DNA of 37,324 nucleotides from Candidatus Micrarchaeota archaeon (lineage in GTDB: Archaea > Micrarchaeota > Micrarchaeia > CAILAH01). Position numbers and translations under genes: made by a program. Where the stretch lies: positions 1-37,324 of the forward strand of contig CAYOAB010000002.1 of the NCBI GenBank assembly GCA_964401875.1, given 5' to 3'. Shown in pieces: positions 16,499 to 37,324 of the stretch; position 1 is the stretch's first letter; each line of letters opens with the position of its first letter. The notes under the pieces were generated by a model. That model was given only the letters and a program-made list of their open reading frames with translations. It was not told the DNA's origin and ran no database searches.

Positions 16499-16537
16499 TT
16501 TTTTCATTTATATATTTTAATCTCCTAATTCTTATTT

Positions 16538-19979: not shown

Positions 19980-21748
19980 CTTATCACTTTTTGTTTAGTT
20001 ATTCTTAATATGTGAAGTAAAAGTTGTATTTCATCCTCTTTTAATTGTGACGAATACTTCTCTAAATACATTTCACCTTCCCTCTTATGCACATATGTGT
20101 AAAGAGTAATTCCAGCAACAATATCTCTCCCAAATGTTGGGCCATCTACTGATATTGCTGCTTCATTACCTGCTACTGCTTCATCTTTACTTGTCTTATC
20201 AACTTGTATACCCTTTATTTTACCTATAATTTCTCCTCTCTCATTTATCAAATCTGTTCCCTTTTTTATTCTCCCCACTTCAACCTTAACACCAAAAATT
20301 GCTGGTTTATTTATTCTGAAACAGCAGTTAGGTATAATTTTAATTCTTCCAATGGGTTGTAATTTCTCAAATACATTTTTCTTTTCCTCTTGTAACATTT
20401 CCTCTTTCCATTTTGTATATTTTTCAATAAGCAAATAAATTACATTATCATTGAATATTGGTATTTTATTTTCTTTAGCAAATTGTTCAACGTCTTTTTG
20501 AACTTTAACATTAAACGCTAAAATAACTGCGTTAAGTGGATTACTTTCCCTAACAGCACAGGTTTCAACTACATCCTTTTTTGTAACGTTACCTATGTTA
20601 ACTCTTCCCACTCTAATCCCTTCATTTTGAAGTAACCTAATACTGGCTTCAAGTGAACCCAAGGTATCTGCCCTAACAGTTAATCCATCTCCTCCCGAAG
20701 TGAATTTAAGTATAGAATTCATTTCATTCTTAAGTGAATTTATCTCCTCATCATTTTCATTTTCAATTGTTATCAATTCACTTCCTGGTAATGCTCCTTC
20801 CAGGTTAGGTGCAACTATCTTAACACCACTTGCGGCTCTTACACTTTGAATGTTAGCGAATTTATCTTTAGGATCACGCATTTCATCTAACGGTTTAGGT
20901 TTAAGTAATGCTCTAATTGTAGTAATGTTAACTCCGTCAAGTGTAGCGAAAGCTATTTTATCCCCCACATTCAATTTACCATTATACAAAATACAATCTA
21001 ATGTGGTTCCCAACCCTTGCACCTCTTTAACTTCAAGAATACTTGACTTACCTCTAGATTCTTGATCAGTTTTCAAATTATTTTCTAAATATTTCTGTGC
21101 TAAAGCAGATATCATAATTAATATTTCAATTAACCCTTCACTTGTATGTGCACTAACAGGTATAATTCCAATTTCTTTCGTGAAATCTAACACTCTATCA
21201 TATCTATCTGAGTTGAAACCCAATTCACCTAACTTTCCTACTAAATTATAGATTTTATTATCTAAATCCTCTTGAACTTGTGGTGTTTGTTGTGAAATTG
21301 ATTCCATTATAGATTTTGTATTTTTCTTTTTCCAACCATAAACTAAATCGACCTTATTCATGGCAACTATGAAAGGTGTTTTATATTCTTTTAATATGTT
21401 AATAGCTTCAATTGTTTGAGGTTGAAAACCTTGCGTTGCATCAACAACTAAAATAGCAATATCTGCAATACTTCCCCCTCTCTTACGCAAATTAGTAAAC
21501 GCTTCATGTCCGGGTGTATCTATAAACAATAAACCTGGTATTTTAAGGTTAAATTTCATTTTTTCAAGTAATGATTTACCAATGCTATTGATTATATCTA
21601 TGGGCACTTCACTTGCACCTATGTGCTGGGTTATCGCTCCCTTTTCCCTCTTCTGAACACTTGTATTTCTAATACTATCTAATAATGAAGTTTTACCGTG
21701 ATCAACATGGCCCATTACGACTACAATGGGTTGTCTAACTATTTCCAT
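19976..21748 (-). CDS. infB: Translation initiation factor aIF5B (IF-2 homologue)
   Basis: 590 aa with G1 GHVDHGKTSLLD, G3 DTPGHEAF and G4 NKVD. Length and domain order are typical of archaeal aIF5B. Confidence 0.9.
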   Translation of the reverse strand: MEIVRQPIVVVMGHVDHGKTSLLDSIRNTSVQKREKGAITQHIGASEVPIDIINSIGKSLLEKMKFNLKIPGLLFIDTPGHEAFTNLRKRGGSIADIAILVVDATQGFQPQTIEAINILKEYKTPFIVAMNKVDLVYGWKKKNTKSIMESISQQTPQVQEDLDNKIYNLVGKLGELGFNSDRYDRVLDFTKEIGIIPVSAHTSEGLIEILIMISALAQKYLENNLKTDQESRGKSSILEVKEVQGLGTTLDCILYNGKLNVGDKIAFATLDGVNITTIRALLKPKPLDEMRDPKDKFANIQSVRAASGVKIVAPNLEGALPGSELITIENENDEEINSLKNEMNSILKFTSGGDGLTVRADTLGSLEASIRLLQNEGIRVGRVNIGNVTKKDVVETCAVRESNPLNAVILAFNVKVQKDVEQFAKENKIPIFNDNVIYLLIEKYTKWKEEMLQEEKKNVFEKLQPIGRIKIIPNCCFRINKPAIFGVKVEVGRIKKGTDLINERGEIIGKIKGIQVDKTSKDEAVAGNEAAISVDGPTFGRDIVAGITLYTYVHKREGEMYLEKYSSQLKEDEIQLLLHILRITKQKVIR

Positions 21749-21833
21749 ATAATTAATTCAGAATTAAAATTATTTAAATTGTACATTTAAGTTATATTTT
21801 TAAATTTAGATTGAGATTTACTTTTGTGATATT

Positions 21834-22496
21834 GTGAGCGGAAACGATTTAGAATTTATTGATGTTATTGTACTAAAGAAAATTGATGCAGATTCTACCG
21901 TTGAATCATTCGGTTCAAGGTTAGGTGGAATATTTGAAGCGGCAAACATTTTAGGTGGCATTAAGCTTAAAGGGTATATAGATATTCATTCCATTATAGG
22001 TAATAGTCCAGTTATTATAACCGATAAAGGTAATTCTCTTTTACATGATTTAGATGTGCATGCAAGAACTCCTATAACTAAAATTGATAAAGCAGTTTTA
22101 GATTCAATAAAGAAAAGTTTCAAGGAACCCGGACAAATATCAAGGATGCTTAACATTAATTCAAGAGACATTGCTTATAGTTTAAACAAGTTATGGGTAA
22201 AAAATCTCATTAATGTAAGTTCTCATAATGGGAAAGTAGATATAACTTTAACAGTTCAAGGTTTTGAGGAAGAAATTTATATTAAGGAAGAATTGCCATT
22301 AGAATCTGACACAAATTCTGATAATATAAAAAATAAAATTGCCAAAGAAATAATTGATGAAGATGCTCAAGAAGTTTGTGATTTAAATAATGAGGATACT
22401 TCCTTCATGAGTAAATACTCCTTCGCCATTGTGGGATTAATTCTATTATTATTGGCAGTAATACTCGTTTTATTTATTGTGTTTGTAGGTATTTAA
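21834..22496 (+). CDS. Tail-anchored protein with a possible winged-helix segment (hypothetical)
   Basis: 220 aa with a GTG start; there is no in-frame ATG before residue ~105. GQISRMLNINSRDIAYSLNKLWVKNLI looks HTH-like. The C-terminal TM is FAIVGLILLLLAVILVLFIVFVGI. Confidence 0.45.
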   Translation: MSGNDLEFIDVIVLKKIDADSTVESFGSRLGGIFEAANILGGIKLKGYIDIHSIIGNSPVIITDKGNSLLHDLDVHARTPITKIDKAVLDSIKKSFKEPGQISRMLNINSRDIAYSLNKLWVKNLINVSSHNGKVDITLTVQGFEEEIYIKEELPLESDTNSDNIKNKIAKEIIDEDAQEVCDLNNEDTSFMSKYSFAIVGLILLLLAVILVLFIVFVGI

Positions 22497-22519
22497 ACTT
22501 TTCACTTTTTATATTCCTT

Positions 22520-23128
22520 ATGCTAAAAGAAGATTTAGATTTATTTTCAAAGAGTGGAATTAAAATTCCTAATTATTTAATAATTAAGCCTAATGAAGAG
22601 TTCAAATTGTTTAATGCTAAGAAGTATGTAGTTAAAGCTCTTGGTGAAAAACTTCTTCATAAAAGTGATATGGGTGCAGTTAAAGTTAATGTGGAAAGAG
22701 AAGACGTTGAAGTTGAAATGAGAAAACTAAGAAATAGATTAGGTAAAAATGTTGAAGCTTTCTTAATTCAAGAGATGGCAGAGAAAGGTACGGAAATAAT
22801 AATAGGTGCCAAAAAGGACGCTCAATTCGGTGATGTTGTTCTCTTCGGATTAGGCGGTATTCATGTTGAATTATACAAAGATGTTTCATTGCGTTTATGT
22901 CCTGTTACATTAGATGATGCTTATGAAATGATTGATGAAACTAAAGCTTCAGTTATACTAAATGGTTTTAGGGGTTCACCTCAAATTGATAGGAGGATGG
23001 TTGCTCAATTGATTATGAAAGTATGTCAAATAATGCAAAAGAATCCTGATATAAAAGAGATTGATTTAAATCCAGTAATTCTTTACTCGAGAGGGTATAG
23101 TGCAGTGGACATTCGTGTTATTAGATAA
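22520..23128 (+). CDS. acdB: ADP-forming acetyl-CoA synthetase, beta subunit (ATP-grasp)
   Basis: 202 aa. VVKALGEKLLHKSDMGAVKVNV ... FGDVVLFGLGGIHVELYKDVSLRLCP ... LNGFRGSP ... DLNPV is the ATP-grasp_5 pattern of ACD beta. The alpha subunit follows immediately. Confidence 0.75.
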   Translation: MLKEDLDLFSKSGIKIPNYLIIKPNEEFKLFNAKKYVVKALGEKLLHKSDMGAVKVNVEREDVEVEMRKLRNRLGKNVEAFLIQEMAEKGTEIIIGAKKDAQFGDVVLFGLGGIHVELYKDVSLRLCPVTLDDAYEMIDETKASVILNGFRGSPQIDRRMVAQLIMKVCQIMQKNPDIKEIDLNPVILYSRGYSAVDIRVIR

Positions 23129-23138
23129 AGGTGTTTTT

Positions 23139-24533
23139 ATGGTTAACAAAAAAATTAATGTCAAAAACGTTATGGAACCAAAGAGTATAGCTGTTATAGG
23201 GGCTTCAAAAAACCCCTCAAAAATTGGACATGCAATACTCAAAAACATGTTAATTAGTGGGTATATAGGTAAACTTTATGCAGTTAATCCATCAAGTGAT
23301 GAAATTTTAGGTGTTAAATGTTACAATTCAATTCTTGAAATTAAACATAAAATTGATTGTGCAATTATTTCAATTCCGGCAAAACTTGTTCCACAAGCTC
23401 TTGAAGAGTGTGGTAAGAAAGGAATTAAAGGGGCAATTATAATTAGTGGGGGTTTCAGGGAAGTTGGAGAAGTTGAACTTGAAAATCAAATCGTTGAAAT
23501 AAGTGAAAAGTATGGTATTGCTGTGATAGGGCCAAACTGTTTAGGTATTGTTAATGTTGAAAAGCATTTAGATAGCATTTTCCTTCCCACTTATAAAATG
23601 AAAAGGCCACAAGCAGGTAAAATAAGTTTCATTACACAGAGTGGTGCAGTAGGTTCAACTTTAATTGATTTAATTGGTGAATCAAACATTGGTATTTCCA
23701 AATTCATTTCTTATGGTAATGCAGCTGTGTTAAATGAAGCTGATTTAATTGAATATTTAAGAGAGGATAAACAAACTGAAATTATTGTAATGTACGTTGA
23801 AGGTGTTAAGCAAGGTAGAAGGTTTTATGAGGAGTTAAAGAAAACTACATTAAAGAAACCTGTAATTTTATTGAAGGCAGGTAAAGGTACACTCGCATCC
23901 AAAGCTGCAGCTTCACATACAGGTTCACTTGCTGGTGATTCTAAAGTATTTAGTTCCATGCTTAAACAGGCTGGTGTAATTGAAGCACAAGGTTTGGAAG
24001 AGCTTTTTGATATTTCAAAAATTTTCTTAACAAGGTTACCTAAAGGTAAAAACGTTTTCGTTTTAACAAATGGTGGTGGCTCGGGGGTTTTGGCCGTTGA
24101 CGCAATTGAAAGTTATAAAATGAAACTTGCATCATTTGATAAGAAAACAATTAACAAATTAAAAAAGAAATTACCTTCCCATGTAGTTGTAGGGAACCCA
24201 TTTGATGTAACTGGTGATTCTGGTAATGATAGGTATAGAATTGTACTTGAGGAAGCTGTTAAGGAACCTCACATTGATGCAATTATTGTAATTACATTAT
24301 TCCAAACAGCAGGGTTGAATGCGGAAGTAGTTCATGATATAATTAATGCTTCAAATTCAACTGATAAACCTTTAGTTGCTGTTGCTGCAGGAGGAGCGTA
24401 CACTAAATTACAATTAAGCATTTTGGAATCTTACGGTATACCTACTTATGAGTCACCAACACAAGCTGTTTACGTTCTTTCAAAAGCTTATTGGTACAAG
24501 AGGAAGCGTGACATGAATGTTAGAATTAAGTAA
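23139..24533 (+). CDS. acdA: ADP-forming acetyl-CoA synthetase, alpha subunit (CoA-binding plus ligase-CoA domains)
   Basis: The track ORF starts at 23100, but the ATG at 23139 (MVNKKINVKNVMEPKSIAVIGAS) follows the acdB stop by 10 nt. Motifs are PKSIAVIGASKNPSKIGH, GPNCLGI, SQSGA and AASHTGSLAG (phosphohistidine loop). Confidence 0.8.
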   Translation: MVNKKINVKNVMEPKSIAVIGASKNPSKIGHAILKNMLISGYIGKLYAVNPSSDEILGVKCYNSILEIKHKIDCAIISIPAKLVPQALEECGKKGIKGAIIISGGFREVGEVELENQIVEISEKYGIAVIGPNCLGIVNVEKHLDSIFLPTYKMKRPQAGKISFITQSGAVGSTLIDLIGESNIGISKFISYGNAAVLNEADLIEYLREDKQTEIIVMYVEGVKQGRRFYEELKKTTLKKPVILLKAGKGTLASKAAASHTGSLAGDSKVFSSMLKQAGVIEAQGLEELFDISKIFLTRLPKGKNVFVLTNGGGSGVLAVDAIESYKMKLASFDKKTINKLKKKLPSHVVVGNPFDVTGDSGNDRYRIVLEEAVKEPHIDAIIVITLFQTAGLNAEVVHDIINASNSTDKPLVAVAAGGAYTKLQLSILESYGIPTYESPTQAVYVLSKAYWYKRKRDMNVRIK

Positions 24534-25431
24534 TTTAATTTTACTTTTACTTCTTTACGTTAATGTTAAAGTCATTAAGAAATATTTAAGGTCTAACAAT
24601 ATTTTTCTTCTCTTTCTTTCAGGTGTTTTACTCTTTACTTTCTTCAACTATTGGTTAACAGTTTATTCTATTATTCTTGGTAATTTCGTTAACCATTTTC
24701 AAATTATTATGAACATTCTACCCATATTTATTTTCATTGTAATAATTGTACTTGAGAGTTTAAGAAAAAAAGAACAAATTGAAAAAAATAAAACAAGAGA
24801 TTACTTTTCTAAATATCTCTCTGAGAAAATAGTTGATAATTTACTTGAAGGTAAACTTGAACTCGGTGGTAAAAAGGAAGAAGTAACAATTCTTTTCACA
24901 GACATAAGAGGTTTCACTTCTCTCTCAGAGAAATTGGACGCACAGCAAATTGTTGAGCTTTTGAACGGGCATTTTGATATAATTACTCATGAGATTTTTG
25001 AAGAGGAAGGTACCGTTCTAAAATACATTGGAGATGCTACAATGGCAATATTTAACGCTCCCATTAAACATGAAAATCATACTGAAAAAACAATTAATGC
25101 ATGTATTAAAATACAAAAGAGAATGAACATTTACGCGGATTTGGTTCAACAAAAATATGGGATTGAAAACTTTTCAATAGGTATAGGTATAAATGTAGGT
25201 GAAGTTGTAATAGGTAACATTGGTTCCCACAAATATATGGATTATACCATAATTGGTGATCCAGTTAACACAGCATCACGTTTAAATGGGCAAGCGAGAG
25301 CGGGAGAAATTGTTGTTAGTGAAAAAGTGTATTCCAAAGTTAAAAGTAAGTTTAAGTTCAGTGAACCTGAAAGTGTTAAGGTTAAGGGAAAGGAAAAAGA
25401 AGTTAAAATATATAGGGTGATTTACACATGA
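24517..25431 (+). CDS. Membrane-anchored class III nucleotide (adenylate/guanylate) cyclase
   Basis: 304 aa with about three N-terminal TM helices followed by a CHD domain. VTILFTDIRGFTSLSE and LKYIGDATMAIF carry the two metal-binding Asp, and IIGDPVNTASRL carries the Asn/Arg transition-state motif. The start overlaps the acdA end by 17 nt. Confidence 0.8.
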   Translation: MLELSNLILLLLLYVNVKVIKKYLRSNNIFLLFLSGVLLFTFFNYWLTVYSIILGNFVNHFQIIMNILPIFIFIVIIVLESLRKKEQIEKNKTRDYFSKYLSEKIVDNLLEGKLELGGKKEEVTILFTDIRGFTSLSEKLDAQQIVELLNGHFDIITHEIFEEEGTVLKYIGDATMAIFNAPIKHENHTEKTINACIKIQKRMNIYADLVQQKYGIENFSIGIGINVGEVVIGNIGSHKYMDYTIIGDPVNTASRLNGQARAGEIVVSEKVYSKVKSKFKFSEPESVKVKGKEKEVKIYRVIYT

Positions 25432-25949
25432 ATTTAATTGAATATGTAAAGGCATTTTTCACATCACGTGATGATATACTTTCAATTATAAATTCAAACG
25501 TTTCATACCAAAATATAATTACTTTCATTTTTGCAGTTTTCCTAATTTCTGTACCCACAACATTCCAAATTTACAATTATGTTTTCAACATAATCCTATT
25601 AGGAATTTCAATTTCTTTAATCACTTTATTAAGTTCATATTTAATTTCAATGTTAAACAAAAAAGATTTATTCAATACATTTTTAGGTAATTTAAACTTC
25701 GTTTCATTCATAGTTTTCTGTAATGTTTTCATTATACTTTTAATGTATTTGATAGGCCTACCCTTCAATGCAAGTTCAATTTTAATATCCGTTGCGGCCA
25801 CTCTCATTTCAACATACTATTTCATAGTAATTTTAACTTATTCCTTTTCTTTACAAATAAAACAATGTAAAATGAGAAAATTATATGAGATTTTAATATT
25901 GGCCTTATGGTTCTTTTTCGTTTTCTTAATACTCCCTTTGACTATTTGA
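25428..25949 (+). CDS. Five-TM small membrane protein (Yip1/DUF1282-like layout, tentative)
   Basis: 173 aa. A short cytosolic N-terminus (MNLIEYVKAFFTSRDDILSII) is followed by five hydrophobic helices. Its ATG overlaps the cyclase stop (ATGA). Confidence 0.5.
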   Translation: MNLIEYVKAFFTSRDDILSIINSNVSYQNIITFIFAVFLISVPTTFQIYNYVFNIILLGISISLITLLSSYLISMLNKKDLFNTFLGNLNFVSFIVFCNVFIILLMYLIGLPFNASSILISVAATLISTYYFIVILTYSFSLQIKQCKMRKLYEILILALWFFFVFLILPLTI

Positions 25950-25980
25950 TTTTTATTCTTTTACACGTAATTCTATTAGA

Positions 25981-26481
25981 ATGAAATTAAGTGAAGAGAT
26001 TTTACAATTAATAAAGGATAAGAAATACGATGAATGTTTAACTAAATGTGAAAAGAAAATAAAAATTGATCCTGAAAATTCTGTTGCTCTTTTCGGAGTG
26101 GCCTTTGCTTTATTTCACAAAGGGGAATATGAAAAATCATACGCTTACGCTAAAAAGAACTTACTTAAAGTAAGAGAAAAAGATGTTAATATTTTACTCA
26201 GGATGGTTGAGGTTTACAATTTAATTTCTATGAATAAGTATAATGAAGACATGAAGAAAATTTTGGATTCTTTAGAAAAGGAAAAAAGTAATGAGGATGT
26301 GTCTAATCATGTTAAAACTTTTTTGATAATGTACCATATTTTTAATAAAAATACTGAAACTGCAGATAAGATGTATGGAGAATTAAACGAACAAAAGAAG
26401 AAAGAGTTTCTTAATTTCTTAATTGAAAATGTAATTAAAGGTAAAACTGCTAAAATTATGAAAAACTATTTAAATTTCTAA
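25981..26481 (+). CDS. TPR-like repeat protein
   Basis: 166 aa and all-helical. DPENSVALFGVAFALFHKGEYEKSYAYAKKNL matches the TPR consensus. Confidence 0.6.
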   Translation: MKLSEEILQLIKDKKYDECLTKCEKKIKIDPENSVALFGVAFALFHKGEYEKSYAYAKKNLLKVREKDVNILLRMVEVYNLISMNKYNEDMKKILDSLEKEKSNEDVSNHVKTFLIMYHIFNKNTETADKMYGELNEQKKKEFLNFLIENVIKGKTAKIMKNYLNF

Positions 26482-26496
26482 TAGTAATATCTTTAC

Positions 26497-27894
26497 ATGT
26501 CTCCTCAAGAACAGATTACACAAAAAGAAAATAAACAAAATGAATCTATTTTAAGACAAGAATCTTTTGAGACTATGTTAACAATTATGAACAAAGCAAG
26601 TTCAAGAGGTTCAGAATATATTGGATATTATAATCTAGCAAGTGGACATTTACGTGATAATTTAAAAGCCACAAAGGAGATAAGACAACAAGCATTTAAT
26701 TTTGTAATTCAAGAATTGTCTCCAGAAGCAAAGAGAGAACTGGTTGGCATACTTAAAAGTGAAAGAAAAAAACAAGAAATTGAAAATATTGTTGATCTCA
26801 CTTTTGATGTTAAAACTCATGGTCTTTTAATGGAAAAAGGAATAGATTTTGGTGAGGGGCCGATAAGTATTAGATCTATGAAAAATTTTGGGATAGGTAA
26901 ATATGATGAAGATTCAAAAAAATTTGAATTAACATATGAAGAAAAAGAATTATTTTTAGAATTACAAAATAAATATAAAGAAGAAAAATTAGATTCTCTC
27001 ATTAATTTTAATTATTATGAGGATACACTTCATGCCACTGCAGGGGTTATGAAAATTATGAAAGAAGGGAAGAGTAAAGAAGAAGCTATGCAAATAGTTG
27101 ATGATTTAAGAAAAGCGTTTGGAATTAAGAAATTTGGAAGGTATGATGCGGCAACATTAATTGAACAACATAATAATACAGAAATAGATAGTGAAACTGG
27201 AACGTATAAATTAAAAATAGATAGTACAAAAGAACAAACTATATTTATAAGTGGGCATTATGAATATAATGGTGCGGCATATAAAATTGAAGGGGAGAAT
27301 ACAGCATCCAGTATAACTAGAAAAATTAATGGATTAAAAAAAGAAGGTAAAGCACAAGTTTGGATATATGAAGAAAGTTACGGTGATGAAGTGTTTACTA
27401 CTCTTCAAAATTTTGATGCGGAAATGGAAAATAAAAAATATAATATAGTAATAAGTGCTCATGGAAATAGTCAAGAAGTATTATTTGGAGGCGAAAGAAA
27501 AAAGAACCCAAATGAAAGGCAAAAAGATGATCATTATTTAAATATGGAAAATATGAAACAACAATCAGAATTTTTAGAAAGTTTGAAAGGAAAGGTGGAT
27601 AACATAATTATAATGGCTTGCTCAAATAGAACAGAAGAAAATATAAATTATCTAGCAAAAGAATTCCATTTAACAACTAATGCTACTGTTATTTCTGCGG
27701 GAGAACAAGTATATGGAACTATATTTAGAAATAAAGAACCTAAAATAATATTTAAATATGGAAACCGTATAGAAGGGGGAATTCATTATGGTGCACAAGT
27801 TTATGCAGGTGGAGTAATAAGCGGGTACTTAAAAAGTCAAGGAGAATACTATGAGGGAAAAAATTTAGAACCAAATTATAGAAATAAATTATAA
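26497..27894 (+). CDS. Hypothetical cytoplasmic protein with a C-terminal caspase-fold-like (clan CD) His/Cys dyad
   Basis: 465 aa with no signal peptide. A hydrophobic strand plus His-Gly (KYNIVISAHGN, H322, nt 27460-27462) is followed 53 residues later by a hydrophobic strand plus Cys (NIIIMACSN, C375, nt 27619-27621). This arrangement is seen in caspases, CHAT domains and C80 CPD domains. The assignment is by pattern only. Confidence 0.45.
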   Translation: MSPQEQITQKENKQNESILRQESFETMLTIMNKASSRGSEYIGYYNLASGHLRDNLKATKEIRQQAFNFVIQELSPEAKRELVGILKSERKKQEIENIVDLTFDVKTHGLLMEKGIDFGEGPISIRSMKNFGIGKYDEDSKKFELTYEEKELFLELQNKYKEEKLDSLINFNYYEDTLHATAGVMKIMKEGKSKEEAMQIVDDLRKAFGIKKFGRYDAATLIEQHNNTEIDSETGTYKLKIDSTKEQTIFISGHYEYNGAAYKIEGENTASSITRKINGLKKEGKAQVWIYEESYGDEVFTTLQNFDAEMENKKYNIVISAHGNSQEVLFGGERKKNPNERQKDDHYLNMENMKQQSEFLESLKGKVDNIIIMACSNRTEENINYLAKEFHLTTNATVISAGEQVYGTIFRNKEPKIIFKYGNRIEGGIHYGAQVYAGGVISGYLKSQGEYYEGKNLEPNYRNKL

Positions 27895-27898
27895 ATAA

Positions 27899-28561
27899 TT
27901 ATTTTTCTAAAGTTCCATAAAAGTTTCTAAAGGTATTTAATGAATCTAACCTAATATTAAAATCAATTTCATTTGATTTTCCTCCCTCTTTTTCTCCCTT
28001 TATTGTTAATTTGTCCTCTTCAAAATTAATTGAATGTGAAACAATTTTTTCATTTGAAGAGATTAATTGAAATGAAAAATCTCTTTTTTCTTTTAAAGAT
28101 TTTTCATAACTTGAAAAGTGTAAATATCCTTCATTTACTCCAGTCAAATAAATAGTACCATTGTTTTCAAAAATATGAGAAAAGTTTTTTGAGTTTTCTA
28201 ATTTGTATGTTTTTTCACCATCTTTAATATGTATTTCATTTCCACTTATTTTAGCAGAAAAATTTGTGTTTGGAATTTTAGCATATTTTTCATTTAAAGT
28301 TACATTTTTTTCCTGTTGTGTTTTTGAATATGTAATCGTACTTAATCTTGAATGTTCTATTTCTTTAGTAGATTGAGAAACCATATTTACACCTTTGTTA
28401 TTATCATCATTATTACATCTCTCACATGAAATTAAAATGCTTTCTGTTAAAATTAAACCCATTATAACAAATTTGTTGAATTTTTGTTTAATTGAATTTT
28501 TCTTCATCATATGTGAGTGCATTAAAAAAGTTAAGGGTTCAGAATATTTAAACCTTTCCAT
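27899..28561 (-). CDS. Small secreted protein with a lipobox-like signal (hypothetical)
   Basis: 220 aa in the track; the start is more likely M18/M19 (ATG at 28510 or 28507): MMKKNSIKQKFNKFVIMGLILTESILISC. The remainder is beta-rich. It is divergent from the 1383-aa gene across a 75-nt spacer. Confidence 0.55.
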   Translation of the reverse strand: MERFKYSEPLTFLMHSHMMKKNSIKQKFNKFVIMGLILTESILISCERCNNDDNNKGVNMVSQSTKEIEHSRLSTITYSKTQQEKNVTLNEKYAKIPNTNFSAKISGNEIHIKDGEKTYKLENSKNFSHIFENNGTIYLTGVNEGYLHFSSYEKSLKEKRDFSFQLISSNEKIVSHSINFEEDKLTIKGEKEGGKSNEIDFNIRLDSLNTFRNFYGTLEK

Positions 28562-28636
28562 TTCATTATGTCTTTATTTAATTACTATTAGTAAAACATA
28601 ACATTTTTAAACCTTAAACTCTCTGAAATAGGACCT

Positions 28637-31600
28637 ATGAGGAGCTTCAAAACTAAGAAAATTGTAGCGGGCGCTATGTTGGCCGCACATTTATTTACTG
28701 TTACGCCTATTTATGCTAATGATAATGTTAATTCTAACGAGAATAAAAATCAAAAAGTAATAATTGAAAAAACTGATGTTGAATTTTTACAGGAATGTCT
28801 AGATAAAAAAGATTACATTTCATTTCAAAAGAAGTATGATGAATTAATTGAGAGAAAATTAATTGATGCGGAACCCATTGTAAAGTATGCACCAGTTTTA
28901 GGGCCTAAAACTAAGAAGGCAATATCTATATTACAAAAGAATGGATATCTTTTAGATGAAGAGAAAACATTCCAGATTAAAGAAGTTAAAGAAGTTAAAA
29001 AAGAAGAAAAAGAAAAGAAAACATCAATTGAAGAATTTAAAGATGAAATGAAAAGAACACCTTATGATTCATGGGACGAACAAAAACAACTTGAAAAATC
29101 ATTAACTATACTTGAAAAAAGAACAGATTATTTGAAATTATTATATAGTGGTGATACTGAATACCCCTACTCTTATTACATAGGTGAAAGGTGGTTAATT
29201 GAATTCACAAAAACGTTAAACCAACTTGAAGCACAATACTCAAAAACTTTAAGGTATGAAAATTCAAAAGAAAAAATGGATGAAATAATAAAGAAAAATT
29301 TCCCTGAATATGAAAGTTATGAAAAGTTAATGGGTTCCATGATTATTTTGAGAAATAACGTTCAATATGTTCTAAACGACTTGAAATTAATGAAGAATAA
29401 ATTAAAGAATGCACAACCAGTTCAGATAAATCAAATTATAATTGAAACAAAAAAAGAAATTTCTAATAGATTAAATGAAGTAACAAATAGAATTTTAATT
29501 TTAGATTCAAACAAAATGCCTTATCTCTACTCCTATTCAATTGAAAGTAATTTAAAACCCAACTATTTAGATGTTTTAGAACACATATCTTCAAATGAAG
29601 ATTTCATTAAACATAAGAAATGGTTAACTGAAAATTATTTCAAAACAACAACTTTCGGTAATTATAATAAAGATGAAGTTATACTCGCTTACAATGAACT
29701 TTCGTTGGGCACTCAGCACGCTCTCTTTAAATATTACTTTAATGAACACAATAAAAATAACATTCCAAACAGTGAAAAGTTTGCATTACAAGTATTCGGA
29801 TTAAATGTTCAAGGATATGAATCTGCCGCATCAATAGTTCAATACTTAAACAGGATGGATAAATTTGATGCTAAAACACAACTTGAAATATATAGGAGAA
29901 TTGGTGCGGGAACAACTTTCGCTGAGACGGAAAGTGATTGGATTAATTTAACAACTTATATTAACACGGATGTAAATGAAGCTTTAGGTAAAGTACTTAA
30001 AACCGATATTGTTATGATAAGGGATCAAACTAAGGATAGGTATGAACTTAAATCAGCAAGTATAGGTACACCAGGTTTCAATGTCCGTGAAGATATAAAC
30101 ACAAAAGGTAGCGGTAGTGTACACTTACAGGAAGCGTTCACTATGATTGAACAAGGTTATTACAACAATGATTCAAACGTTCAAGGTTCAAACATAAACG
30201 TTAACACAGCACCACATTTAAATGGTACTAATTTAGAAAACGCAAGGCCTAAAGGGCATTCAAGAAACATTGATGACATGTTCGGAAGGAACAGAGTTGA
30301 AACAACAGTTCCAAAAACTAATGTTCAAATTGTTAAGAGCATTGCTGATTTAGGCGTTTTCAATTACAGGTACGTTCAAAAGGGAACATTCACAAATTTA
30401 ATTTCAAGAACTGAAGAAAATTTAGATTACACAAAAACAACTAACCTTGGTCAAAATGAAACTGAAGAAACAAGTAAAGTTGATGTTACTTACACAAACA
30501 ATTTAACAAGTTATTTGAACGCTGATGGGCCTTCAAGGTATTCTAATAATCAATTCAATTGGGGTAGAAGTAAATCTACATCTTATTTAACTTACGAAAA
30601 TGAAAATGAGAGAAGAACAAATGACTTTGAAAGTGTTTCCGATTCTTTCAGTTTAAATTCTAAAAATAGAAATTTATTTTCCACAAATAATTTTGGTATA
30701 AGTTTATTTGACTTGGAAAGTAATTTGAAAGTAGGTGAATCACCAAACACTTCTTCAACTCAAAAAACTGAAATTATAACACCTGGTTTAGAAGATGAAT
30801 CATACACAATTAACAAAACAAAAGATATGAAAGGAGATTATGAATATTATTTAGATTCAAAAATGTTTAGTGGTTGGTATGAAAATTATTCAAGAGGTAA
30901 CTTTGGTGAAATAGGTTTATTCAACGAGGTTAAAACTTTTAGAGATAATGAAACAAATGAAAACACTATAATTAGAAACGGAACAGATTTAGATAAATTT
31001 AAAGAATGGGACTTTGAAAACATTTACAATTTAAAGGAATGGCAATTACATGCAGGTACACAACAATTAAATGTTTACACAAATTCTCTTTTCTTTAGTG
31101 GAATGTATAAAGGTGTATTCACTATAAGACCTGAAAATTCATACTATTTAAAATTCGGTGAAATTGAAAATCAACAAGGTGAAAAAACAAAAATTCACAA
31201 TTATTACAAAGATGAACAAGAAATCCCTTCACACATAAAGAGTGAAAGAGATGTTTTCAATTCAGATGTTGTATACCATGGTGCCGGAGGAGTATTAGGT
31301 ATACCTTTCAATGGAAATAATGAAATAGGTTTAGGTTACGTTCACAATAAAACTTTAATGGATAAAGATAAACATTTAGGTTTACTCTCCTATTCATGGC
31401 ATGAAAATTCAATTGCTGCTCTTTCATTATACCAAGGTTCTTACAATATAAGTAGAGGTTCAAACCCTTACTCTTTGTTCACAAATCAAGTTAACCAATT
31501 AACAAGGAACGATTTGTTTAATTATAAATTCCCAAGAGATTCAAAGTCAATGGAACAATTATATTTGAATTCTCAGGAAGCAACTTTCATTGAAGCAACA

Positions 31601-32788
31601 GTTTTGAACAAAGATAATTTGAATATAACAGCTTTCGCGGGTAGTGGTGAAGAGTATAACAGAATACAAGCAGGTGCAATTTCAAATTATGTACATGATT
31701 TATTCAAATTAAAAGTTGGCGGTATTTACGATGAAGGTAACAATCTTGAAAGGGAAAATGGTGCAGGTAACTTATATTTAAGTAATAAAAAAGAAACAGC
31801 ATACATTTTAGGTTCAATATTAGCACAAAAAGAATTGGGTTGGAAAACCGATGAAGCATTAAGATATTTAGGTGAATTATTTGGTTTAAAAGTTGAAACT
31901 AAAGCGTACACTTCATTCTCAGAAAATAATAAATTAAATGAAAAAGGTAGATTTATTGGAGCAGAAATAAGTTTCAAAGATGATACAGTTGTCCTCTATT
32001 ACTTTGGTGGTAAAGATGTTTACAGTGAAAACATTGAAGAGCATAAAGAGTTTAATTTAATTGGTGCATCAGGTAAATTCACACCAAACCTTTCAATTGA
32101 AGCTTATGGTACTTGGAAAGGTGATTTAGGTAACGGTGCATTCTTACATCCCATAATAACACACAATAACAATTTCGGTATAACTGCATTGATTGGTTAC
32201 ACGCAAGATAAAGTTAATTTCAATCTCTTAAATGAAAGAGTGAAAAAAGATTACTTAACAACAGGTTTAGGTGTAGGTTTCAGAAAAGGTGGTTTAAGTT
32301 TACTTCTACTTCCAATTTCTTACACCAACAATTTTGAGTACAAACACATAATTGAAACGGGTTTAAGTGGTACTTACTGGTTACCTGGCGGTTCATTGGG
32401 TTTCGGTACAGGTTATGTTCATAACATTATACAAAACCCTACTAAAAGTATGTTAGAAAATCCTTTCAAACTCCCATACAAAGATAACAATTTCAATTCA
32501 AGAATGTTTTACTTGTATGGTGAAGGTTCCGGTAGAGGTATAATGGGATTTGATTATACAAAGTTCAGGTTAACGGGTAAATTAGGTGAAAATGAACTTT
32601 ACAAATTATACCAAACAATTGCAACTCTTGAAATGAGTGATTTCTGGAAAAGAATTTATTTTGATTTATCTTTCACTTACAAAATGGATAAGGGAGATTT
32701 AATCTTACAAGATAATTCCAGTGAATTAAAAAATGTAATGGAAAAATATAATGTAAAAGGAATTTTAGGAGTTGAATTTTACTTTTAA
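28637..32788 (+). CDS. Giant secreted protein: signal peptide, peptidoglycan-binding-like motif, coiled-coil/helical region and a C-terminal outer-membrane beta-barrel-like domain
   Basis: 1383 aa.
- The Sec signal is MRSFKTKKIVAGAMLAAHLFTVTPIYA|ND.
- LGPKTKKAISILQKNGYLLDE resembles the second half of a PG_binding_1 repeat.
- The last ~450 aa consist of short amphipathic Gly/aromatic-rich strands (NLSIEAYGTW, FGITALIGYT, TTGLGVGFR, ETGLSGTYWL, SLGFGTGYVHN, RMFYLYGEG, GIMGFDYTKF, RIYFDLSFTYK).
- The protein ends GILGVEFYF, with Gly at -5, an aromatic at -2 and a terminal Phe. Confidence 0.65.
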   Translation: MRSFKTKKIVAGAMLAAHLFTVTPIYANDNVNSNENKNQKVIIEKTDVEFLQECLDKKDYISFQKKYDELIERKLIDAEPIVKYAPVLGPKTKKAISILQKNGYLLDEEKTFQIKEVKEVKKEEKEKKTSIEEFKDEMKRTPYDSWDEQKQLEKSLTILEKRTDYLKLLYSGDTEYPYSYYIGERWLIEFTKTLNQLEAQYSKTLRYENSKEKMDEIIKKNFPEYESYEKLMGSMIILRNNVQYVLNDLKLMKNKLKNAQPVQINQIIIETKKEISNRLNEVTNRILILDSNKMPYLYSYSIESNLKPNYLDVLEHISSNEDFIKHKKWLTENYFKTTTFGNYNKDEVILAYNELSLGTQHALFKYYFNEHNKNNIPNSEKFALQVFGLNVQGYESAASIVQYLNRMDKFDAKTQLEIYRRIGAGTTFAETESDWINLTTYINTDVNEALGKVLKTDIVMIRDQTKDRYELKSASIGTPGFNVREDINTKGSGSVHLQEAFTMIEQGYYNNDSNVQGSNINVNTAPHLNGTNLENARPKGHSRNIDDMFGRNRVETTVPKTNVQIVKSIADLGVFNYRYVQKGTFTNLISRTEENLDYTKTTNLGQNETEETSKVDVTYTNNLTSYLNADGPSRYSNNQFNWGRSKSTSYLTYENENERRTNDFESVSDSFSLNSKNRNLFSTNNFGISLFDLESNLKVGESPNTSSTQKTEIITPGLEDESYTINKTKDMKGDYEYYLDSKMFSGWYENYSRGNFGEIGLFNEVKTFRDNETNENTIIRNGTDLDKFKEWDFENIYNLKEWQLHAGTQQLNVYTNSLFFSGMYKGVFTIRPENSYYLKFGEIENQQGEKTKIHNYYKDEQEIPSHIKSERDVFNSDVVYHGAGGVLGIPFNGNNEIGLGYVHNKTLMDKDKHLGLLSYSWHENSIAALSLYQGSYNISRGSNPYSLFTNQVNQLTRNDLFNYKFPRDSKSMEQLYLNSQEATFIEATVLNKDNLNITAFAGSGEEYNRIQAGAISNYVHDLFKLKVGGIYDEGNNLERENGAGNLYLSNKKETAYILGSILAQKELGWKTDEALRYLGELFGLKVETKAYTSFSENNKLNEKGRFIGAEISFKDDTVVLYYFGGKDVYSENIEEHKEFNLIGASGKFTPNLSIEAYGTWKGDLGNGAFLHPIITHNNNFGITALIGYTQDKVNFNLLNERVKKDYLTTGLGVGFRKGGLSLLLLPISYTNNFEYKHIIETGLSGTYWLPGGSLGFGTGYVHNIIQNPTKSMLENPFKLPYKDNNFNSRMFYLYGEGSGRGIMGFDYTKFRLTGKLGENELYKLYQTIATLEMSDFWKRIYFDLSFTYKMDKGDLILQDNSSELKNVMEKYNVKGILGVEFYF

Positions 32789-33840
32789 TTTTTAATATAA
32801 TAAAAACCTAAAGAAAGTAAAATTAATCCAGCTACCCCTCCACATAAATGTGCACTTTCTTGTATTTCCTCTTCAATAGGGGAAGAAGTACTAATTTGGT
32901 TAACTGTTGCAACTGCATACAAACTTAAACCATCCGTGTAAACTAATATTATGTAATAATCCCCTGCATCAATTATTTCAGGTTCAATTATGGTGAAATT
33001 CCCATTGTCATCTATTCTAACAACAACAATATCCCCACTTAATTTACTTTTTGGAATTTCAAATTTAATTGTTGCTTTTTCTATATCTTCACCATCTTTA
33101 ATGTTTTTTAAATCTACTCTTACACTTTCAATTATTTCAGTTTCATAACCTTCAAATTCTTCCTGTAATATTTCCTCTAATTTTTGAATATCCTCTTCTG
33201 TTGTTTCACTTGGGGTTATTGAAGCATTTTCATTGAAATTCAATGATAAAGCTACTATATGAAGTGTTTTAGGAGCATTTTCAATTGTAATTTCATATTT
33301 ATCTTCTTCATTTTTTTCAATATTTGTTGTAAATTCTTCTTCTTCCTCAATTATACTTTCTTCACAATAAGGAACAAATGTCCAGTATTCACTTAATTCT
33401 AAAGTAACACCATCTTCATTTTCATTAACATAAAATTCTGCCCATTCACTTGTACATCTAACTTCATTTCCTTCTTTATAACAAGAACATGGGTATCCAA
33501 TTATACTTGAACATAAATATTCAATTATCATAGGGTTATCTGTTGCAATGTGTGTACTTGTTTTGAATTTCATAAATTCAATTGTTGTTTCGTCACCAAA
33601 TGTAATTACAAGTTCTTCTGTTGGTTTAAATCCACATTTAATTTCATTTCCAATTTCACATGTACATTCCGATTTAAATCCTTCCGTACAATATTTCTCT
33701 AAAATTATTTTATCGTTCAAAGCTTCTTTAGGTAAACAATCTTCATTCACAACTGAGAAAATAGTTCCCATTAAGAACAGTAACATTAGAATAGATATTT
33801 TTTTCATAATTAAATTAAAAAGAGAAATTATTTTAACCAA
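32785..33840 (-). CDS. Secreted Cys-repeat surface protein with a C-terminal TM anchor (hypothetical)
   Basis: 351 aa in the track; the start is probably the ATG at 33807 (MKKISILMLLFLMGTIFS signal). Two copies of a C-x7-C-x-C-x2,3-GNE-x2-C module are present, followed by an E-rich linker, a beta domain and the C-terminal LCGGVAGLILLSLGFYYIKN. Its stop overlaps the stop of the convergent 1383-aa gene. Confidence 0.6.
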   Translation of the reverse strand: MVKIISLFNLIMKKISILMLLFLMGTIFSVVNEDCLPKEALNDKIILEKYCTEGFKSECTCEIGNEIKCGFKPTEELVITFGDETTIEFMKFKTSTHIATDNPMIIEYLCSSIIGYPCSCYKEGNEVRCTSEWAEFYVNENEDGVTLELSEYWTFVPYCEESIIEEEEEFTTNIEKNEEDKYEITIENAPKTLHIVALSLNFNENASITPSETTEEDIQKLEEILQEEFEGYETEIIESVRVDLKNIKDGEDIEKATIKFEIPKSKLSGDIVVVRIDDNGNFTIIEPEIIDAGDYYIILVYTDGLSLYAVATVNQISTSSPIEEEIQESAHLCGGVAGLILLSLGFYYIKN

Positions 33841-34514
33841 CTGGCATAATCTTTCTTTAATTCCGCTAACAATTCTCTTGCTTTTTTGTTTCCTTCTTTT
33901 TTTAATTTGTAAATTAATTCAATGTCACGGAAATCTTTTTTTCCTTCTTGGTATTCTTCTAAAATTACAGCACCTTTCTTTAACAATAACAATGCAATTT
34001 CATAACAAGAACCTTTTGATTCTTCAGTTGTTTCCATTCCATTTTGTAATGCTAAATAGAATGCATTAAAATAAAAATCAGGATCAGGTTCTTCAATATT
34101 AACATTTTTTTCTAATAAATATTCAACAATTTGAATGTTACCTTCATTTATAGCTACCTGTAAAGGCGTGAATCCATTTTCATCTTTCTTATTAACATCA
34201 AGTCCAACAATTTCAACTAAATATTTCATAGAAATTGTAGAATTATATTCCGCTGCTCTGTGTAAGAAATCAATTGAATATTTCTCTTCAATTCCCTTAT
34301 AATCTCCTTTAAACTCTCTTTCAAGCTCTTCAATTACCCCAAACATTACAAAATCATTAATTTTTTCTGTACTGTGAAATGTTTTTACTTTTTCATCAAT
34401 TTTCTTTTTATTATACAATTCAGGATTTTCTTTCTTAATTTTTTCAAATCTTTTTAATTCTAAGATTGATAATACGTTCTTTTGAGGACCATTAATGATA
34501 TTTTTATTTTTCAT
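33828..34514 (-). CDS. Ankyrin-repeat protein
   Basis: 228 aa. DENGFTPLQVAINEGNIQIVEYLLEKNVNI is a canonical ANK repeat, and flanking repeats are FLHRAAEYNSTISMKYLVE and FYLALQNGMETTEE...ALLLLKKGA. There is no signal peptide. Confidence 0.85.
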   Translation of the reverse strand: MKNKNIINGPQKNVLSILELKRFEKIKKENPELYNKKKIDEKVKTFHSTEKINDFVMFGVIEELEREFKGDYKGIEEKYSIDFLHRAAEYNSTISMKYLVEIVGLDVNKKDENGFTPLQVAINEGNIQIVEYLLEKNVNIEEPDPDFYFNAFYLALQNGMETTEESKGSCYEIALLLLKKGAVILEEYQEGKKDFRDIELIYKLKKEGNKKARELLAELKKDYASWLK

Positions 34515-34545: not shown

Positions 34546-34567
34546 CATTTTGATTAATAAGAGGATA

Positions 34568-34639
34568 TGGACTTGCCGGGGATCGAACCCGGAGTCTCTA
34601 CCTTGCGAAGGTAGCGTCATACCATTAGACCACAAGCCC
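34568..34639 (-). tRNA. tRNA-Ala (anticodon CGC)
   Basis: The reverse complement is GGGCTTG-TG-GTCTAATGGTATGAC-G-CTACC-TTCGCAA-GGTAG-AGACT-CCGGG-TTCGATC-CCCGG-CAAGTCC-A. The cloverleaf is perfect with a G3:U70 alanine identity pair. There is no intron and no encoded CCA. Confidence 0.9.
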
Positions 34640-34662
34640 ACTATTATGTTAAAGTGAACTAA

Positions 34663-35696: not shown

Positions 35697-37324
35697 TTGA
35701 AGTATAATTTTTTATTGGTAATAATTATGTTTTTATTTCAAACAAGTGTTCATGCGAAAAAAGAAGAATTTAGTTCTGATAAAATAAAAAAAATAGAAGA
35801 AATAAGTAATAGAATGAAGGATTTATATACAGATAAAATTATGGAATCTGATTCTTTAAAAAAACTTCTTCCACCTAATATTTTAAATATAAAAAAGGAA
35901 TTAGATTCCTTTATTAAAAACGATTCAGGCAAATATAGTGATGCTATAAAAAATGATTATGATTCTAATACTCCTATAAGTGCAGTTTTGGCCATTCGTT
36001 TAGTTTTAAATTCTAAGGAGGCCTCCAATGAACTAAAAGACAAGGCCCTTGATTTATATAATAAGATTAGGCCAATATTAGTTGAACAAGGAATAGGTAA
36101 TTTACCTAAATTTGAAGAAGTCAAGAAGCCTATAGATTTATCTGTTCCACAAGATTATTTTATTAATCAAGAAGGACCTATAAAAGTTAGTTCAATAGAT
36201 ATTATTCCTTGGGGTACTGTTGGAGAAGATAAAATTCCAGAAAAAATTCTATATAAAAATTATTATGGAGAAACAAGAAATTACACTTTAATAAAAGAGA
36301 AAGAAGGTATTTATAGAGATGGTAATAAAATTCCGTATTATAAATACAATGAGAAAGGTATTGATTATACTATTGGATTAGATGAAATTATAAAATTAGG
36401 ACATTTCAATTCAGAAAAGATAGGTATAAAATTAGTTGAATCTCAAGGTATTAAAATACAAGGCAGAGATCCATTATTGATTTATCCTGAGGACTATGAT
36501 AAACTTTCAATTGAACATTTATTGAATTCAAAACAAATGCTAATTCCAATAAAAGATTTAGAAGAAGAGAATAGATTAAGATTAAAAAGTCATGTTTTAC
36601 GTCCAGAAATTGCAAAAATGGCAGATGATTGTCTTAGAGACCTTTCAAAAAGAGGTTTATTAACAGATTCGGTTAGAAGTAAATTTTTAATTAGTTTATA
36701 TGAAGTGGATTATATGGACAGGGCGGTGGGTTATCGCCACAACCTAGCTAAAAAATATATAAGAGCAGTACAAAATTTAGATTCACAACTCAGGGATTAT
36801 CCTAATCTTTTTGCTAGAGGTATTGATAATTTAAAAGTACAAATACAAGTTAAAACAGAACAATTTCATGAAGAACCCAATACTTCTCCATTTACAAATG
36901 GTAATGTTCCCAGGATAGCATCTACTTTAAATCAAGGTTTAGAAGAAGTATCTAAATTAGGAAAACTTGATTTTTTCTTTTTTGGAAGAAGAGATCTCTT
37001 AGACACTTTTTTAGATATGAAAAGTATGGATTTAGTTCCGGGAGCTATAGTTCAGAAGAATATAAGACAAGAACAATTTAATTTATTATCTGAAGAAGAA
37101 TATCAAGAAATTGATAGATTCCTTCTTAGTCTTCTTGGTGAAACCTATTACAATAATATGATAAATCAATTTATAGGAAGTGTGAGTGGTGATGTTGGTT
37201 CTGGAAGAAGGTTTGAAGAAGGAAATGTTAACGTTTCAACACCTACATCAAATATTAATTATGAAACAAATGTTAAACGTGTCAAAATGTTAATTAATGC
37301 TGCATTATACCCTGATAAATTATC
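35697..37324 (+). CDS. Large secreted hypothetical protein, partial (runs off the window end)
   Basis: Not in the ORF track because it is open at the 3' end. The frame is open from 35679. The first ATG is at 35727, but an in-frame TTG at 35697 gives a complete signal peptide, M-KYNFLLVIIMFLFQTSVHA|KKEE. More than 530 aa are read without a stop, and no catalytic motif was recognised. Confidence 0.6.
   Translation, partial: MKYNFLLVIIMFLFQTSVHAKKEEFSSDKIKKIEEISNRMKDLYTDKIMESDSLKKLLPPNILNIKKELDSFIKNDSGKYSDAIKNDYDSNTPISAVLAIRLVLNSKEASNELKDKALDLYNKIRPILVEQGIGNLPKFEEVKKPIDLSVPQDYFINQEGPIKVSSIDIIPWGTVGEDKIPEKILYKNYYGETRNYTLIKEKEGIYRDGNKIPYYKYNEKGIDYTIGLDEIIKLGHFNSEKIGIKLVESQGIKIQGRDPLLIYPEDYDKLSIEHLLNSKQMLIPIKDLEEENRLRLKSHVLRPEIAKMADDCLRDLSKRGLLTDSVRSKFLISLYEVDYMDRAVGYRHNLAKKYIRAVQNLDSQLRDYPNLFARGIDNLKVQIQVKTEQFHEEPNTSPFTNGNVPRIASTLNQGLEEVSKLGKLDFFFFGRRDLLDTFLDMKSMDLVPGAIVQKNIRQEQFNLLSEEEYQEIDRFLLSLLGETYYNNMINQFIGSVSGDVGSGRRFEEGNVNVSTPTSNINYETNVKRVKMLINAALYPDKL

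Follow-up and report, generated by a model that had tools for sequence, protein, structure and literature searches.

The window analysed in the present study is a stretch of 37,324 nucleotides (contig CAYOAB010000002.1, Candidatus Micrarchaeota assembly GCA_964401875.1), and its subject is the gene at 28637-32788 on the forward strand (the big gene), an open reading frame (ORF) for a predicted secreted protein of 1383 amino acids (the big protein). A smaller ORF at 27899-28561 on the reverse strand, coding for a lipobox protein, lies divergently beside it. Both ORFs are present as an initial annotation of the window had described them. The big protein starts with MRSFKTKKIVAGAMLAAHLFTVTPIYA followed by NDN. 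On inspection the n-region of this stretch is basic, its core is hydrophobic and its cleavage site is A-x-A-like. This points to a Sec-type signal peptide, as had been noted earlier, covering amino acids 1-27 (28637-28717) with cleavage predicted after IYA. The mature protein has a computed mass of ~156 kDa, a pI of 5.7 and one cysteine. By composition, amino acids 30-130 form a Lys/Glu-rich N-terminal part. This is followed by a region with much Leu, Lys and Glu and little Gly (amino acids 130-480, 29024-30076), in which the alpha-type hydrophobic moment is higher than the beta-type. A helical or coiled region had been proposed here, and composition and the periodicity of the hydrophobic moment speak for a helix tendency. 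Next comes an Asn/Ser/Thr-rich region (amino acids 481-869, 30077-31243) holding 9 of the 15 N-x-S/T sequons of the protein. The C-terminal ~510 amino acids (870-1383, 31244-32785) contain 10.7% Gly and many aromatic residues, and the protein ends in NVKGILGVEFYF, the last residues being KGILGVEFYF. All these features of the big protein lie on the forward strand.

Relatives of the big protein are few. A word-indexed search of 5.8 billion clusters gave P0002 (66% identity), P0003 (61% identity) and the fragment P0004 as close relatives. When a profile of the C-terminal 595 amino acids was compared exhaustively with 1.84 billion representatives by HMMER, 8 proteins were obtained. Two of these 8 are distant full-length homologues of 22–28% identity, P0013 (1491 amino acids) and P0014 (1379 amino acids). 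P0014 is homologous to the big protein over most of its own length (24% over 692 amino acids and 28% over 370). The same type of signal peptide is seen in P0002 and P0003 and is kept even in P0013 and P0014. Genes for Alba, MCM, aIF2-gamma and aS21, together with sugar-nucleotide genes, are found beside the distant homologues, and with such neighbours both homologues are archaeal as well. No new member of the family was obtained when a profile of 7 sequences was used in the word-indexed search, a scan of species genomes with the family alignment gave no relative, and a metagenome scan gave only the contig of P0014, which had already been found. Neither the single protein nor either of two profiles had a match among the PDB sequences. 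The family is very small and unannotated, and it is archaeal in every context that could be recovered.

The C-terminal residues deserve attention here, as the initial annotation had read them as a beta-signal of the kind used by the bacterial beta-barrel assembly machinery (BAM). GILGVEFYF (32759-32785, forward strand) is beta-signal-like in that Gly stands at -5 and Phe both at -2 and at the very end, and the same string is identical or near-identical (GI/VLGV/IE/DFYF) in P0002, P0003, P0012 and P0025. P0013 and P0014 end in ...LLYTYSVY and ...LWFIYNNF, respectively; in these only the terminal aromatic residue is kept, and Gly at -5 and the alternation are not conserved. The last residue is aromatic in three lineages, for which a rough chance estimate is ~1–2%. 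The aromatic end is thus retained among the homologues, whereas the canonical BAM-type spacing (Gly at -5, alternation) appears to be specific to the clade of the window.

Presence of a protein with a bacterial look in an archaeal contig raises the question of its origin. The contig carries genes for the large and small subunits of replication factor C (RFC), aIF5B, the Lhr helicase and both subunits of the ADP-forming acetyl-CoA synthetase, and this set identifies the source as an archaeon, in agreement with the archaeal context assumed before. The aIF5B of the window is 42–45% identical to proteins of Woesearchaeota, Nanoarchaeota and unclassified archaeal metagenome-assembled genomes, and 29–32% identical to bacterial IF2. 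The source is a DPANN-type archaeon similar to Woesearchaeota/Nanoarchaeota, without a close species representative. It was suggested earlier that the big gene could have come by ancient transfer from a diderm bacterium, and recent transfer from such a bacterium and a mis-assembled chimeric stretch of the contig were considered as well. The sole support for bacterial DNA is the look of the C-terminus, which is like that of an outer-membrane protein (OMP). Against it, the 8 hits of the exhaustive profile search include no sign of a bacterial relative, the scan of species-representative genomes found no relative, and all the recovered gene contexts, which cover the close relatives and the two distant full-length homologues, are archaeal. 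GC content is uniform across the window at ~30%, and the big gene, with a GC of 0.296, a GC at third codon positions (GC3) of 0.216 and an effective number of codons (ENC) of 36.1, is ordinary for the contig. The match in composition with the surroundings that had been noted is therefore real. Over 16498-25954 and 28582-33833 the window is collinear with L019, a contig of 55 kb that comes from a different sample, and copies of the big gene with the same neighbours occur in three further assemblies (L001, L002 and L017). In independent assemblies the gene is flanked by the RFC, aIF5B and acetyl-CoA synthetase genes and an ankyrin gene. With five independent assemblies sharing the locus, chimeric assembly is excluded. 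The gene is also preceded by a conserved TATA element of archaeal type, 26–33 nt 5' of the ATG. Bacterial transfer or chimerism is effectively refuted, its probability being close to nil, and the big gene is native to the DPANN-type archaeon.

Comparison of the window with L019 shows how strongly the big protein is constrained. The two big proteins are 95.3% identical, with 0.026 nonsynonymous (dN) and 0.251 synonymous (dS) substitutions per site and a dN/dS of 0.10. The corresponding values are 95.8%, 0.020, 0.556 and 0.037 for aIF5B and 97.3%, 0.020, 0.501 and 0.039 for the RFC small subunit. The dN/dS of the big gene is similar over all its four regions (0.08–0.13). Other neighbours, several of them secreted or membrane proteins, are far more diverged: p624 is 61%, p220 77%, p222 64% and the ankyrin protein 36% identical. 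The big protein is under strong and uniform purifying selection and is as constrained as housekeeping proteins, as would be expected of a core structural component rather than of a host-contact factor that evolves fast. It should be noted here that the dS of the big gene (28637-32785 against L019:10001-14134) is 0.25, about half of that of the flanking housekeeping genes (0.50–0.61). The codon bias of the gene is not unusual; strains may have recombined recently at this locus, or the mRNA may be under some further constraint.

The region between the two divergent genes had been described as a shared promoter of 75 nt serving a barrel and its lipoprotein partner, in the manner of such pairs in diderm bacteria. 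Alignment of the window with L019, L001, L002 and L017 gives a different picture. The ~45 nt 5' of the big-gene ATG are near-invariant in the five loci, although the proteins are only 60–66% identical, and there is no conservation upstream of that. A TATA-like element, TTTTTAAA, is located at 28604-28611, that is -33 to -26 from the ATG, a position which implies a near-leaderless mRNA. Positions 28594-28636 on the forward strand are therefore a self-contained archaeal-type promoter that belongs to the big gene and is not shared with the small gene. The longest small ORF reaches 28561, but the start at 28510 (MMKKNS...) is the most likely one because the same start is found in L001 and P0008. 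The small gene then occupies 27899-28510 on the reverse strand and codes for 203 amino acids, and the spacer to the big gene becomes 126 nt instead of 75. On the side of the small gene the spacer is part of an indel. A segment of 2.6 kb at 25955-28581 of the window comprises a 166-amino-acid gene like tetratricopeptide repeat (TPR) proteins, a 465-amino-acid gene and the gene of the small lipobox protein. By blastn the whole segment is missing from L019, which is otherwise collinear with the window. The indel is clean, with both breakpoints at L019 position 9947 and its boundary at 28581/28582, and the promoter of the big gene is intact in L019.

The small protein itself is very likely a genuine lipobox protein, in line with the earlier description. 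A lipobox is defined as a signal peptide followed by [LVI][ASTVI][GAS]C (PMC12462473), and in the small protein L-I-S-C is present at residues 26-29 (28424-28435) as the end of MMKKNSIKQKFNKFVIMGLILTESILIS-C and is invariant in P0005-P0010. The string LILTESILISCER around it is near-invariant in homologues down to 50% identity. The small protein gave no Pfam or NCBIfam match and its 465-amino-acid neighbour gave no family match; the 465-amino-acid gene and the small gene are also carried by L017 and L018. Lipobox-type N-termini were seen in two more proteins of the window, at 17556-18113 on the forward strand (...FFLFGC) and 12642-13907 on the reverse strand (...MTTVGC). Lipobox proteins thus seem common in this genome, and lipoproteins are reported to be prevalent across DPANN (PMC12462473).

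Whether the small and the big protein form an obligate pair, co-regulated from one divergent promoter, is a question independent of what the big protein does. In the window and in L001 the genes stand side by side in divergent orientation, they are neighbours in L017 with one gene, for an isochorismatase, between them, and the near-invariance of the lipobox region would also suit a functional partner. This isochorismatase gene probably explains why the gene at the contig end of L002, 5' of the big gene, is unrelated to the small protein. On the contrary, the small gene is missing from the L019 locus while the big protein there is 95% identical, the distant homologue in L013 has no lipobox neighbour, and the gene list of the P0017 contig shows no obvious one either. 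Lipobox proteins being frequent both in the window and in DPANN, and the conserved promoter block belonging to the big gene alone, an obligate pair is very improbable. The supposed lipoprotein partner is dispensable.

The C-terminal domain is the part that suggested a membrane barrel. A first AlphaFold2 run on amino acids 789-1383 with 3 close sequences gave a mean confidence score (predicted local distance difference test, pLDDT) of 30 and was discarded. A second run on amino acids 870-1383 with 8 sequences, including the distant ones, gave a mean pLDDT of 43, which is still low. In this model the domain consists of 24 antiparallel hairpin strands with a mean length of 10.5 amino acids, and most of them have one clearly more hydrophobic face. 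Hairpin turns of 2–4 residues largely alternate with loops of 6–56 residues, and helices occur in three connecting segments, two at about amino acids 1051-1105 and one at 1358-1371. The hairpin signal was stronger with 8 aligned sequences than with 3. When the model was compared with the PDB by Foldseek, the top 50 matches were all transmembrane beta-barrels. OccAB4 was the best (E 2.5e-4), followed by OccK, OmpC/OmpF, Tom40, BtuB, FadL and LptD, but the template modelling (TM) scores were 0.2–0.3 and the root mean square deviation (rmsd) 19–29 Å. In the viral structure library BFVD the named high-probability matches to the model were porin-annotated proteins. The alternating hydrophobic patterns of the domain are kept in homologues at 24–32% identity. 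A test for internal hairpin repeats gave one marginal repeat, amino acids 877-904 against 1237-1263, with a score of 46 where the maximum of shuffled sequences was 45.

Sequence profiles gave less. No known OMP family of Pfam or NCBIfam matched significantly, the best being Porin_OmpG_1_2 at a sub-threshold E of 0.038 for one fragment only. The Pfam autotransporter beta-domain did not match either; it has 12 strands and the predicted domain about twice as many. For pore-forming toxins there was no similarity beyond one sub-threshold match to Aerolysin (E 0.03). The evidence is moderate that the C-terminal domain is, as modelled, a long-strand antiparallel meander with porin-like local geometry. 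The strand-like region described in the initial annotation is thus recovered. Of the outer-membrane barrel proposed with it, the porin-like strands, the barrel-type structural matches and the terminal aromatic residue hold, whereas the sheet may or may not close into a barrel, the TM-scores being 0.2–0.3, the rmsd above 20 Å and the pLDDT 43. A genuine transmembrane barrel, whether in the own membrane or in that of a host, is possible but doubtful.

The nature of the cell wall has a bearing on this question, as a peptidoglycan-binding repeat had been proposed for the N-terminal part. The string in question, LGPKTKKAISILQKNGYLLDE (amino acids 88-108, 28898-28960, forward strand), is present within a basic N-terminal module of ~80 amino acids and in part resembles PG_binding_1. 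Membership of this family (PF01471, a three-helix domain of ~57 amino acids) was rejected: three N-terminal segments gave no Pfam match at E≤10, and when a genuine domain of the family, taken from L013, was compared by hhalign, the alignment covered 16 residues with 18% probability. The motif is not found in P0013 or P0014. No SLH or other wall-binding domain was detected in the big protein with Pfam and NCBIfam, and there is no sign of a murein wall within the window. A GT28-like glycosyltransferase at 1670-2770 was considered as MurG and rejected, being of the MJ1255 type (32.6 bits against a murG cutoff of 250). As a separate observation, the gene just upstream of that of P0014 (L013:8727-9830 / L014:1-525) has a genuine PG_binding_1 domain (30.9–33.2 bits against a cutoff of 23), which is unexpected in an archaeon. 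Its product is Lys/Glu-rich, without an obvious signal peptide, and its Lys/Glu-rich tail resembles the linker of the big-protein family.

One way to read the C-terminal domain is as a genuine barrel of OMP type located in an outer membrane, the second membrane of the cell. A BAM-like insertase would read the aromatic signal, and the N-terminal part would be a stalk or tether in the periplasm. Among known architectures the SlpA/OmpM tethers of diderm bacteria come closest, and by analogy the big protein may work along similar lines. In SlpA of Deinococcus an SLH domain is followed by a coiled-coil stalk and a barrel of 30 strands (PMC10743373). The big protein is likewise a large secreted protein with a small N-terminal module, an elongated helix-prone region and a large C-terminal beta-domain, so that the order of module, stalk and barrel runs in parallel. 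It differs in having an extra Asn/Ser/Thr-rich region of ~390 amino acids, in showing no sequence similarity and in lacking a detectable SLH or other wall-binding domain. It also belongs to an archaeon without a known outer membrane or murein, and its low-confidence model is not a closed barrel. As the defining SLH domain is absent, the big protein is not a member of the SlpA/OmpM group. Its likeness to porins (OccAB/OccK, OmpC/OmpF) and other BAM substrates, among which the best structural matches fall, includes Gly/aromatic-rich alternating strands of 10–15 residues, alternation of turns and loops, an acidic pI, near-absence of cysteine and a terminal Phe. In contrast to them, it has ~870 residues before the beta-domain, no OMP profile match and TM-scores of 0.2–0.3, and its beta-signal is canonical only in the clade of the window. 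To our knowledge, BAM machinery has not been described from archaea.

The even number of strands (24), short turns largely alternating with long loops, the all-barrel structural matches and the aromatic end in three lineages, with G-x-x-aromatic-x-F canonical in the clade of the window, would all suit an outer-membrane barrel, and some archaea, such as ARMAN (archaeal Richmond Mine acidophilic nanoorganisms; PMC4243693), are reported to possess two membranes. Apart from the low model confidence, the model that is not a closed barrel, the lack of an OMP family match and the missing conservation of Gly -5 and of the alternation in P0013 and P0014, the genetic surroundings argue against it. Within the 37-kb window no Omp85-type or chaperone gene was found, and no gene of the window or of the short related contigs carries an Omp85 or POTRA domain. 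The profile search gave no paralogous barrel proteins, whereas diderm bacteria carry many. The absence of SLH and PG-binding domains and of evidence for a murein wall weighs in the same direction. Taken together, an outer-membrane barrel of this kind is decidedly improbable.

It could also be that the protein is a pore or adhesin secreted by an episymbiont and inserted into the membrane of its host, as a conduit or for attachment, where the insertion machinery of a diderm host might be exploited. We know of no large monomeric barrels that insert without machinery, the known cases being substrates of BAM and of the sorting and assembly machinery (SAM), and this speaks against such insertion, as does the absence of pore-forming toxin similarity beyond the Aerolysin match. 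The same structural signals as for an outer-membrane barrel apply, and the protein has a signal peptide and no anchor of its own. The genes around its own, which code for secreted, membrane and ankyrin proteins, vary between strains, and DPANN archaea depend on host contact, the molecular basis of which is largely unknown (PMC11329633). The PG_binding_1 gene beside that of P0014 (30.9 bits against a cutoff of 23) could be placed on this side as well; it is taken here as a lead and counted as no support. However, a host-contact factor should be under arms-race pressure, and the observed constraint is unlike that: with a dN of 0.026 and a dN/dS of 0.10 the big gene evolves as slowly as those of aIF5B and RFC, whereas the neighbouring candidate host-interaction genes are 36–77% identical. 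A host-membrane pore is therefore unlikely.

The remaining comparison is with archaeal surface layers (S-layers), for example SlaA with the membrane-anchored SlaB as its partner. The likeness consists in a length of ~1400 amino acids, Sec secretion, absence of an own anchor, sequon-rich stretches, a narrow lineage-specific family and an adjacent conserved gene for a membrane-anchored secreted protein. The last is p351 (32785-33807, reverse strand), a convergent gene whose stop overlaps that of the big gene by 4 nt. In the protein p351 a signal peptide and a C-terminal membrane anchor are accompanied by a Cys-rich and an acidic region. Its gene adjoins the big gene in every close relative and is conserved in L001, L002 and L019, the L019 counterpart being 87% identical. 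The two differ from an S-layer pair in that p351 is convergent and not in an operon with the big gene, and the big protein shows no similarity to S-layer families. Archaeal S-layer proteins usually have immunoglobulin-like (Ig-like) or beta-sandwich domains, unlike the long-strand hairpin meander predicted here. The end of p351, C-G-G-x-x-G-L-I-L-L-x-x-G-F-x-Y-I-K-N, combines a Cys-Gly motif with a hydrophobic helix and a short tail that is basic, and it resembles sorting signals of the archaeosortase/exosortase type, though no NCBIfam model matched. For p351, the 465-amino-acid protein and other neighbouring proteins nothing significant was found in Pfam, NCBIfam or PHROGs.

From these data the best explanation is that the big protein is a core structural component of the outermost envelope layer, of an S-layer or canopy type, and we hold this to be about evenly balanced between right and wrong. 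The gene is native, has its own promoter and codes for a protein of ~156 kDa with a Sec-type signal, from a narrow family that is archaeal in every recovered context. The layout of the protein is that of a signal peptide, a basic module of ~80 amino acids, a Lys/Glu linker, a helix-prone part of ~350, a sequon-rich part of ~390 and a beta-domain of ~510 amino acids. The porin-like beta-domain could serve in this layer as lattice, pore or anchor, and the N-terminal regions as its stalk or contact part. The signal peptide, the acidic pI, the single Cys and the sequon cluster are traits of a surface protein, and we infer from such features the envelope localisation, the structural role and any association with a pore or membrane. 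Several observations weigh against a structural role in the outermost layer. The family has nothing meaningful in Pfam, NCBIfam, PHROGs or among the PDB sequences, and the big protein matched no archaeal S-layer family of Pfam or NCBIfam. It has no transmembrane helix, lipobox or sorting signal that would hold it on the cell. The codon bias of its gene is not elevated (ENC 36.1), so that high expression is unsupported. Eight hits among 1.84 billion representatives is an odd rarity for a general envelope component, though surface proteins diverge fast. The structural model is of low confidence (pLDDT 43), and, given that the structural matches are all barrels and that the aromatic end is conserved, a membrane barrel is a better fit than a lattice domain that is soluble.

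Beyond the big gene, the neighbourhood has some features of its own. The ankyrin-repeat protein at 33828-34514 on the reverse strand evolves extremely fast, being 36% identical to its L019 counterpart with a dN of 0.64, where housekeeping proteins are 94–97% identical. An ankyrin-like gene is also found near the distant homologue in L013 (7227-7694). A second large gene at 35727-37324, which runs off the end of the window, follows a 222-amino-acid gene, and the slot of its L019 counterpart is 17121-20909. The 46 nt upstream of it are 98% identical between the window and L019, while the coding sequences are unrelated (BLAST E>0.1), so that its position looks like a hypervariable slot for large genes behind a conserved promoter. 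The same slot, before a gene of ~150 amino acids, Alba and an NTP-transferase gene, is occupied in other lineages by P0013/P0017 and P0014. The 1262-amino-acid protein of the L019 slot also has a Gly/aromatic-rich, hairpin-like C-terminus; it was considered as a diverged paralogue of the big-protein family and rejected (hhalign 0.4%, no BLAST match). The 624-amino-acid protein at 18105-19979 on the reverse strand starts with a signal peptide and ends in a membrane anchor, and its C-terminal half is long, acidic and coiled in appearance. It has no family match, is 61% identical to that of L019 and appears to be another fast-evolving surface protein. In the window ARAGORN called only a tRNA-Ala(CGC) at 34567-34640; a second tRNA-like Rfam match at 2786-2855 on the forward strand (33.1 bits against a gathering score of 29) was not called by it.

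Beta-barrels of the OMP type are seen as characteristic of diderm bacteria and of the organelles that descend from them, and we know of no such barrel established in archaea, even in the few that are reported to have two membranes. The initial interpretation is supported in part by our data. The porin-like features of this archaeal protein are real and out of the ordinary, although its pore fold is weakly predicted, and the protein stands for a new family of putative archaeal envelope proteins. It is conceivable, though not likely, that a small DPANN clade natively encodes a lipid-embedded, porin-like barrel of ~24 strands with a C-terminal aromatic insertion signal, in its own membrane or that of a host. 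If true, an OMP-type transmembrane barrel originating in archaea would be known for the first time, and its existence would require an unknown archaeal route of barrel insertion or a hijack of the route of the host. The envelopes and the host-contact machinery of DPANN archaea are almost uncharacterised at the molecular level. A few archaea, among them the DPANN lineage ARMAN, are reported to have double membranes (PMC4243693), and cryo-electron tomography of DPANN has revealed envelope complexes that are still unexplained (PMC11329633). Being native, surrounded by archaeal neighbours, constrained and endowed with porin-like features, the big-protein family is a concrete and testable candidate. 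Confirmation of the barrel would bear on the evolution of outer membranes and of barrel insertion, and on the exchange between ultrasmall archaea and their hosts. Even if the barrel is not confirmed, the finding would still define a new conserved envelope protein family of an uncultivated lineage.

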